Part shown: piece after piece, positions 52,303 through 52,498 of the stretch | How the letters are laid out: each line of letters begins with the position of its first letter | Numbering within the stretch: position 1 is the first letter of the stretch | Assembly: GCA_023131975.1 (NCBI GenBank) | Contig: JAGLYV010000077.1 | Location: forward strand, 24,546-88,545 | Length of the DNA: 64,000 nucleotides | Direction of reading: 5' to 3' | Origin: Candidatus Krumholzibacteriia bacterium | GTDB taxonomy: Bacteria > Krumholzibacteriota > Krumholzibacteriia > Krumholzibacteriales > Krumholzibacteriaceae | Notes under the pieces: model-generated | Told to the model about the DNA's origin: nothing | The model's input: the letters and a program-made list of their open reading frames with translations, nothing else | Databases searched by the model: none | Made by a program: the position numbers and the translations under genes

Positions 52303-52344
52303 AAAATGAAACATTCCCGCCGATACACCCTATACCGACGGGAA
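52303..52344 (-). terminator. Intrinsic terminator downstream of the small ORF
   Basis: UUCCCGUCGGUAUA-GGG-UGUAUCGGCGGGAA (14 bp, 3 G-U) then UGUUUCAUUUU. Confidence 0.75.
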
Positions 52345-52371
52345 CATTTATAGAATAGGACCGAGATATCG

Positions 52372-52419
52372 TTAACGCAGCCACCAGAATAAATCGATTA
52401 TCAGCATAATGGGCAGCAT
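52372..52419 (-). CDS. Candidate 15-aa hydrophobic peptide MLPIMLIIDLFWWLR
   Basis: ATG preceded by GGAGGTGAT (52432-52424; GGAGG 8 nt before ATG); TAA stop; followed by a terminator. Confidence 0.65.
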   Translation of the reverse strand: MLPIMLIIDLFWWLR

Positions 52420-52498
52420 GGCAATCACCTCCGTATTCCTGAACAACTGCTTCTCGGTTTCAATTAACTGATCGGATCATCCGATTATAAAGTTTAGC

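Follow-up and report, generated by a model that had tools for sequence, protein, structure and literature searches.

We describe here a 15-codon gene on the minus strand of a 64,000-nucleotide stretch of DNA from a Candidatus Krumholzibacteriia bacterium (contig JAGLYV010000077.1; the whole stretch is referred to below as the window). The pattern of substitutions among its homologues indicates that it is a genuine gene, whose protein product is under strong purifying selection, and throughout the uncultured phylum Krumholzibacteriota it is genetically tied to one membrane phosphatase gene, whose product we tentatively take to be the partner of the peptide. The locus is best explained as a monocistronic gene of about 190 nucleotides (nt), made up of a promoter, a short leader, a near-perfect Shine-Dalgarno (SD) sequence, a 15-codon open reading frame (ORF) and a stable 3' hairpin. 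An earlier note on the same DNA had claimed that the locus is a micro-peptide gene, equipped with a strong SD and its own terminator, which the codon pattern and the conservation described below support, and a hydrophobic, membrane-associated product, which remains the most likely kind judging from the residues. That note overlooked three things: a promoter of the sigma-54 type, the tie to the phosphatase gene, and an occurrence in several phyla, with copies behind riboswitches and in phages.

Coding evidence and the peptide family

The SD, the ATG and the 15-codon ORF of the earlier note are all present, on the minus strand, with a spacing of 4 nt between GGAGGTGAT and the ATG. The terminator had been placed about 27 nt past the stop codon and called strand-specific; the hairpin begins 22 nt after the stop, its GTTCCCG core begins about 26 nt after it, and the strand specificity is borne out, since with 4 G-U pairs among its 19 the stem can form on this strand alone. 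In a single genome, such an SD followed by a micro-ORF is not beyond chance. The 9-mer GGAGGTGAT was found 28 times in the 2.79-Mb genome, against 22 occurrences expected from composition, and nine of the 28 copies have a start codon within 2-8 nt, the ORFs there ranging from 2 to 666 codons. It is because of the comparative data, that is, of conservation, that the micro-ORF is lifted above chance: the note had suggested looking in relatives for a conserved frame and SD and for a synonymous bias, and the frame, the 15-codon length, the peptide and the SD are all kept.

When 571 bases around the locus were compared by blastn with 41 related genomes, matches were obtained in 15, the genome of the window (G000) included. 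At nine loci (L004-L012), with identities of 71-81%, the bounds of the match corresponded to positions 52432-52309, from the SD to the hairpin; seven of them (L006-L012) begin at the SD and the other two (L004 and L005) slightly upstream. For the codon comparison we used 14 loci, the window plus 13 homologues, which had been found by DNA similarity with no assumption of coding. The 15-codon frame is kept in all 14, with changing start codons (ATG in eight, GTG in five, TTG in one) and stop codons (TAA in seven, TGA in six, TAG in one), and the remaining two frames contain stops in most of the sequences. Variable columns amount to 7, 4 and 12 of 14 at the first, second and third codon positions, respectively. 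Relative to the window, the whole ORF shows 73 synonymous and 22 non-synonymous codon differences, and core codons 7-15 show 42 and 3, all three of the latter at the position occupied by F, L or W. The SD is retained among the homologues in the form GG(A/G)GGTG, and outside the order of the window the peptide motif persists though nucleotide similarity is gone. The synonymous bias, the changing start and stop codons and the kept frame point to a translated protein rather than an RNA, and the residues, not just the Trp codons, are under selection.

We consider it very improbable that the locus is a non-coding small RNA (sRNA) of about 125 nt in which the ORF is incidental. Such an RNA would account for a DNA conservation that spans exactly the segment from SD to hairpin, for the invariant sequence of the hairpin core and for the position beside another sRNA-like gene, but it would not account for substitutions that are protein-like (42 synonymous versus 3 non-synonymous in the core, with third positions varying most), for start and stop codons that change while the frame is kept, or for a peptide motif that outlasts nucleotide similarity outside the order; moreover, no structure is conserved over the ORF. 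A dual-function RNA, coding and with a role as RNA, is possible.

The peptides share a core of the form [ILV]-D-[LI]-[FL]-W-[WF]-[LM]-[RK]1-3-stop, preceded by a variable, hydrophobic N-terminal part, and their size ranges from 14 to 24 residues. The basic residues right after the Trp pair vary (R, K, RR, RK, KK or RRR). Positively charged residues are known to stay on the inner side of the membrane, and Trp is known to gather at the membrane interface; the variable basic end fits a positive-inside anchor next to an interfacial Trp belt. Families within the phylum are labelled f1 to f9, f1 being that of the window and f1 and f3 belonging to the same order: the f1 peptides have 13 apolar residues, versus 16-17 in the 21-22-residue forms of f4 and f8.

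Genes so short fall under the length cut-offs of standard gene callers, and the 15-residue form is also under the minimum length of the curated-family scans, which cover the 22-24-residue members. For these, Pfam and NCBIfam gave no match at E values up to 10, and PHROGs gave a weak, noise-level match to phrog_18466 (E 0.017-0.073); at E values up to 10 this model left the window genome unmatched and scored in 11 of 14 control genomes. In the literature, as represented by listings and the openings of abstracts, nothing was found on a DLxWWLR peptide or on small proteins of Krumholzibacteriota, nor on a micro-ORF behind riboswitches of the cyclic di-GMP-II (c-di-GMP-II) class. The DLxWWLR peptides look like a new family within the well-known class of small bacterial membrane proteins, unusual in its size, in its cross-phylum spread and in having a sigma-54-type promoter in one phylum versus a second-messenger riboswitch in another. 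The family core can serve as a search motif for further micro-proteins.

Association with a membrane phosphatase

The phosphatase gene lies upstream of the micro-ORF on the same strand, and its product combines SpoIIE (PP2C), GAF and PDZ matches, the last of them weak. Its hydropathy profile shows one N-terminal segment, the PDZ region and about nine more segments up to residue 406, from which, together with the positive-inside rule, we infer a sensor with ten transmembrane (TM) segments, a PDZ domain in the periplasm, and GAF and PP2C domains in the cytoplasm. Full-length orthologues at E 1e-76 or better, with 27-87% identity, were found in 179 of 208 genomes of the phylum, representing every family, and in the other 29 the matches were weaker, partial or cut at a contig end.

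The distribution of the peptide was approached by scanning a degenerate pattern of the C-terminal motif over one genome per species (185,579 species), which yielded 44 loci. Krumholzibacteriota-type loci, with SD, start codon, an ORF of 14-18 codons and the same hairpin, make up 31 of these; three have SD and ORF and a different 3' region (two in Patescibacteria, one in Planctomycetota), three are 24-residue versions, such as MMLVAQFLLIDVVCGIIDLFWWLR, in metagenome-assembled genomes (MAGs) with no phylum label, and seven are chance-like, with the start codon missing or an internal stop. Eleven of the 44 coincide exactly with loci in the related genomes, which places the genome of the window among the Krumholzibacteriota MAGs. 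A shorter pattern run over the 208 genomes of the phylum matched once per genome in 35, namely G000 itself, 31 of 42 genomes of f1, three of eight of f3 and none of 157 elsewhere, compared with two matches for the reversed pattern across the 208. In all 11 pattern-negative genomes of f1 the phosphatase orthologue is absent from the assembled sequence or truncated by the end of a contig, and these absences therefore look like assembly gaps. One record titled Patescibacteria group bacterium (L027, that is, G005:C37) carries a Krumholzibacteriota-type peptide, hairpin and phosphatase in a genome placed in f1, and it is likely to be mislabelled or mis-binned.

To extend the comparison to the divergent families, 3' flanks of the phosphatase gene were taken from 20 genomes of f2, f3, f4, f6, f8 and f9 (f5 and f7 were unsampled) and filtered for ORFs ending in WW plus 0-4 residues. 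One of the flanks was just 112 nt long; the 19 others all contained an SD-led micro-ORF with the core motif, 100-500 nt past the phosphatase stop. The peptides were of the types MLPIAIFLIIDIFWWMR in f2, MLPIFLIIDLLWWLK in f3, MDPITVLIGLSIVDLLWWLRK and METGIIVLALSLLDLFWWLRK in f4, MRIDLIDLLWWLRRR, MEWGLLDLLWWLRRR and MRIELIDLLWFLRRR in f6, MDSTTIATLLILSVDIFWWLRK in f8, and MSWIYLLDLLWWLRR and MQRIYLIDLLWWLRR in f9. The micro-ORF also adjoins the phosphatase gene in the f1 loci examined. In families outside the order, where apt, the sigma factor gene and nlpD no longer flank the unit, the micro-ORF is still beside the phosphatase gene; in one genus the peptide unit is inverted, yet it lies between the same two genes; and the 24-residue forms of the unlabelled MAGs also follow a PDZ-GAF-SpoIIE gene. 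Because the pairing survives a changed flank, an inversion and the passage to unlabelled MAGs, the link is more than frozen synteny: across the phylum the micro-gene is genetically tied to one membrane phosphatase. In the latter, R138 and R264 are near-invariant and located at predicted cytoplasmic boundaries of the membrane, and are candidate partner charges for the Asp of the peptide.

On the other side of the unit, the plus strand carries at 48576-51847 a cluster of pcm (PCMT), a small multidrug-export protein, an M23 peptidase (NlpD-like), a 284-residue sigma-70-family factor and a phosphoribosyltransferase (apt-like). This cluster converges on the peptide unit, is retained solely within the order (f1 and f3) and recalls the pcm-nlpD-rpoS arrangement of Proteobacteria.

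The transcription unit and its surroundings

The features of the locus are listed in Table 1.

Table 1. Positions of the micro-gene, its signals and the related features in the window
Feature	Position	Strand	Details
Micro-protein gene	52419-52372	minus	15 codons and TAA; product by translation, MLPIMLIIDLFWWLR
Shine-Dalgarno sequence GGAGGTGAT	52432-52424	minus	read from the sequence; followed by TGCC, then ATG at 52419
Inferred 5' untranslated region	52489-52420	minus	about 70 nt; start site near 52489 inferred from the -12 element
Small hairpin in leader	52485-52471	minus	predicted for the window sequence
ACCGAGA box in leader	52458-52452	minus	predicted long-range pairing with TCTCGG past the stop
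Sigma-54-type element CGGCACACTTAATGCA	52514-52499	minus	-24 GG at 52513-52512; -12 GC at 52501-52500
Terminator-like hairpin	52349-52309	minus	19 pairs, 6 of them G-C; loop of 3; then CATTTTAATA; T-rich tail to about 52300
sRNA-like unit	51985-52194	minus	TTGACA-16-TATAAT promoter at 52194-52167 (12 of 12); about 170 nt; ends at terminator shared with tRNA-Arg
Membrane sensor phosphatase	55260-52729	minus	843 residues; Pfam SpoIIE 6.5e-50, GAF_3 1.3e-06, PDZ_6 2.4e-04
NtrC-type activator	61749-63161	minus	receiver, AAA+ and Fis-type helix-turn-helix domains

The peptide gene is preceded by a conserved sigma-54-type element, and its transcription is putatively sigma-54-dependent. An alignment of 29 upstream regions of f1 disclosed a conserved block, aGGCA(C/T)G-N4-(T)ATGC(A/T), with GG-N10-GC geometry. 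When elements were scored against the sigma-54 consensus TGGCACG-N4-TTGCW in 50 loci from seven families, the best one was located 60-94 nt ahead of the start codon in 46 of them, with scores of 7-11 of 12, and it is this constant position across families, not the scores at single loci, that carries the case for sigma-54. The genome has rpoN (a Sigma54_DBD match of 217 bits on contig C155) and 22 matches to Sigma54_activat, 18 of them at E 4e-40 or better, corresponding to about 19 activator genes. One of these activators, of the NtrC type, is encoded together with a histidine kinase on the minus strand of the window (61749-63963), 9 kb from the peptide promoter and adjoining lptE, holA and leuS. 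Many f1 loci also display a TTAAGATA-like block about 45 nt upstream of the -24 element, in place of which the window has an inverted repeat, GACGCCTCGTCTGATATATCAGGCGAGGCG, at about 52560-52530; these are possible activator or integration host factor sites, or the terminator of the phosphatase gene.

At the 3' end, 43 distinct hairpins have an invariant core, TTCC(C/T)G/C(G/A)GGAA, and outer pairs that covary (AAA/TTT versus CGG/CCG, G-C versus A-T). For 24 whole transcripts RNAalifold predicted 19 pairs, 15 of which are in the 3' stem; eight pairs, all in the stem, were changed on both sides. The prediction also included one helix of four pairs inside the ORF, without changes on both sides, and over the inferred mRNA it disclosed no conserved alternative structure between ORF and hairpin. 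Families f4 and f8 have ordinary G+C-rich terminators in place of the conserved stem, and the T run is clear in f1-f3 and missing from several copies of f6 and f9; the conserved stem may also stabilise the RNA or bind a protein. The small hairpin of the leader and the long-range pairing of the 5' box with TCTCGG were considered as family-wide structures and discarded, as RNAalifold did not support them; the pairing would be lineage-specific at best. Rfam searches at gathering thresholds and at lenient E values returned tRNAs and noise, with no family on the peptide unit or on the sRNA-like unit, and the riboswitch match at the leader of the window is at noise level (12.8 bits versus a threshold of 59).

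The sRNA-like unit always comes right after the peptide gene in f1, and the two are inverted together in one genus. Positions 52225-52045 are conserved at 70-85% identity in dozens of f1 loci, and the predicted fold of the unit is a long rod (z -3.5). With a size and shape that are 6S-like, it is probably a conserved small RNA that has yet to be described, and its adjacency to the peptide gene in f1 need not mean a shared function.

Other phyla, possible function and related systems

In the two Patescibacteria genomes (1.1 Mb), the peptides are MMWHIFIIDLLWWLR (locus L021) and a form of 15-17 residues ending in MMILLIIDLLWWLR (L033, which has two in-frame ATGs). Each has its own SD and terminator, and both lie between dinB and ssb. 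Upstream of the first there are two tandem c-di-GMP-II aptamers (L021, 2436-2669; 62.6 and 56.4 bits, threshold 53.5), and upstream of the second there is one (L033, 4051-4135; RF03169, 47.6 bits, threshold 40); in a scan of the whole genomes, these aptamers were the only strong c-di-GMP-II matches in either of them. An apparent second aptamer-like copy that ends in GCGTAACCGGCATT and is unreported by Rfam was seen in L033 at about 4250-4336. By eye, both loci also have a promoter-like TTGACA...TAAAAT, 150-350 nt past the peptide terminator, followed by repeated GCCGTCGC boxes, and L033 has in addition DnaA-box motifs resembling TGTGGATAA. The region between dinB and ssb may be a replication origin.

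A scan of metagenomes gave 36 loci, of which 21 were of the Krumholzibacteriota type, eight were other forms with an SD, two were of the 24-residue kind and five were chance-like. Several of the eight are on phage-like contigs; in one (L110) the order is an Amidase_2 endolysin, a 211-residue protein of unknown family and, downstream, the peptide. Among viral contigs, L128 has a 24-residue copy, L194, L197, L198 and L199 encode VIWILFLDLFWWLR, and L196 encodes MIPFLFILDLFWWLR. In the latter, as in the Planctomycetota locus (L023), the peptide is just upstream of an integrase, a typical spot for accessory genes expressed during lysogeny. Viral contig L195 carries on its minus strand (8403-8687) an ORF with a length of 94 residues or more, which has the C-terminal motif of the micro-protein at its end (RFPYIDLFWWLR); it had no match in PHROGs and may be a fused or extended form of the peptide.

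Tentatively, and with somewhat less than even confidence, we favour the reading that the micro-protein is a sigma-54-induced intramembrane partner of the neighbouring sensor phosphatase, a role comparable to that of MgrB or Prli42. Its insertion into the membrane, its topology and its contact with the enzyme are predictions from the residues and the gene context. The peptide would insert into the cytoplasmic membrane with its hydrophobic part embedded, the Trp pair at the cytoplasmic interface and the one to three basic residues in the cytoplasm; the invariant Asp would then lie roughly one turn of the helix deep in the bilayer, in need of a partner charge. The role of the peptide in Krumholzibacteriota would be that of a modulator or ligand of the adjacent 10-TM PDZ-GAF-PP2C phosphatase of the SpoIIE family, so that an input through an enhancer-binding protein and sigma-54 would be coupled, via the peptide, to the output controlled by the phosphatase. 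Of the options raised in the earlier note, that of a modulator of a membrane protein fits best with the phylum-wide tie to the phosphatase gene. A free C-terminus acting as ligand of the periplasmic PDZ domain was also considered and rejected, as the C-terminal length varies and the basic end is more likely cytoplasmic.

Several observations weigh against this intramembrane partnership. Queries made of the phosphatase and of its TM region found no homologue in the two Patescibacteria genomes or in the viral record, and in the Planctomycetota MAG the phosphatase queries matched only PP2C domains; since the peptide occurs without a phosphatase homologue, its basic activity must be independent of this enzyme. 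Thirteen hydrophobic residues are too few to span the bilayer alone. The lasting adjacency could reflect shared regulation, not contact. The filter for a WW end biased the scan of the flanks toward the motif, yet all hits had an SD, a start codon and the same position. Finally, single sigma-54 matches beat shuffled sequences only moderately (0-19 of 200 shuffles reach them).

As the main alternative, the product could be an autonomous membrane-active peptide (a toxin, a holin accessory, a superinfection-exclusion factor or a phenol-soluble-modulin-like peptide), with a phosphatase that is merely co-regulated or senses its effect, which we regard as possible, if less likely than the partnership. 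In Patescibacteria the peptide occurs by itself, following what are the sole strong c-di-GMP-II riboswitches in the two genomes, and it is carried by phage and prophage contigs, beside an integrase (L023 and L196), past an endolysin (L110) or in viral sequences (L128, L194, L197, L198 and L199), with no phosphatase homologue found in the Patescibacteria genomes or the viral record searched; in addition, a hydrophobic stretch ending in WW and Arg or Lys resembles the Trp/Arg-rich membrane-active peptides. However, the gene is single-copy and keeps one locus and the same neighbour across the phylum, unlike mobile, multi-copy toxin genes, and D-L-x-W-W-L is so strictly conserved over phyla as to suggest a specific partner more than a general damage to membranes. 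Nor was there any promoter-like site for an antitoxin on the opposite strand over 52300-52520, and pairing with the neighbouring sRNA-like unit was no better than in shuffles, according to a crude test in which duplex energies of the peptide mRNA with the next 360 nt downstream were predicted for nine genomes. The proposal of a type I toxin of the Ibs class, made in the earlier note, finds no support, given one copy per genome (35 genomes), a fixed locus and an inheritance that looks vertical.

A regulatory leader or ribosome-arrest peptide, in which stalling at the stop codon would control the hairpin or a downstream gene as in TnaC, SpeFL or TrpL, seems improbable to us. Across phyla, conservation is concentrated in the nine residues that precede the stop and the N-terminal part differs in length, as expected if only the part in the ribosomal tunnel matters; there are tandem Trp codons; the hairpin starts 9-30 nt past the stop; and some phage-like contigs have another gene 45-90 nt downstream. 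In Krumholzibacteriota, however, nothing consistent follows the hairpin: the next genes converge or differ by family, and the unit is inverted in one genus. The one to three basic residues at the C-terminus are hard to square with arrest at a defined residue in the P-site, and the RNA lacks a conserved alternative structure between ORF and hairpin. The earlier note had itself doubted TrpL, as no trp gene follows, and with reason: no gene follows, those downstream (tRNA-Arg and apt) converging on the unit; a leader of the Trp-operon type was discarded, as only the terminator stem is conserved, there is no antiterminator helix and the residues themselves are under selection.

The intramembrane partnership and the autonomous activity can be combined: the peptide would have a single conserved membrane target, and Krumholzibacteriota would have evolved, or retained, a receptor dedicated to it. 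A wider form of this proposal, which we consider doubtful, would make the DLxWWLR peptides ancient, cross-phylum intramembrane signalling effectors with one universal target, acting as sigma-54-induced ligand of a dedicated 10-TM PP2C receptor phosphatase in Krumholzibacteriota and as sole output of c-di-GMP riboswitches in Patescibacteria, and carried by temperate phages in copies that would hijack the same target. If this were true, DLxWWLR would be the shortest conserved bacterial signalling protein known and its riboswitch the first second-messenger riboswitch with a 15-residue peptide as only product, and the identity of a universal membrane target would be of interest far beyond the phylum. 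The micro-gene is a testable handle on signal reception by a membrane phosphatase of the SpoIIE family, and the peptide offers an explanation for seemingly "orphan" c-di-GMP-II riboswitches, where annotation misses a 15-codon gene.

Among known systems, TnaC, SpeFL and TrpL share with the micro-gene a short ORF with conserved residues just before the stop and Trp codons, but in the present case no gene under such control lies downstream, the C-terminus differs in length between homologues and alternative RNA structures are not conserved. Toxins such as Ibs, Ldr and TisB are accompanied by a cognate sRNA, antisense or divergent, often exist in several copies and belong to narrow lineages; the likeness consists of a very short hydrophobic peptide, a strong SD and an own terminator, whereas the gene described here has one copy, a phylum-wide fixed locus and no antisense promoter-like site. 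With the genes under c-di-GMP-II riboswitches (RF01786, RF03169) the relation is that of a homologous micro-ORF behind the aptamers in the two Patescibacteria genomes, the leader in the window having a sigma-54-type promoter instead of a riboswitch. MgrB (47 residues) and SafA are small membrane proteins that modulate PhoQ: like them, the DLxWWLR peptide is a short hydrophobic protein with its own small, regulated gene that would act in the membrane on a multi-pass sensor, but it is three times shorter than MgrB and unrelated in sequence, its presumed partner is a PP2C phosphatase and not a histidine kinase, and its promoter is of the sigma-54 type. Prli42 was reportedly described as a membrane miniprotein of 31 residues by which the Listeria stressosome is tethered, upstream of the PP2C phosphatase RsbU and of sigma-B. 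It acts on RsbR in a cytoplasmic complex of Firmicutes, whereas the presumed partner here is a 10-TM phosphatase in another phylum, and there is no sequence relation. What the two would have in common is a tiny membrane protein with a functional tie to a partner-switching (PP2C) stress pathway (on Prli42 and the stressosome, see PMC9840623, PMC6614362 and PMC7705745).

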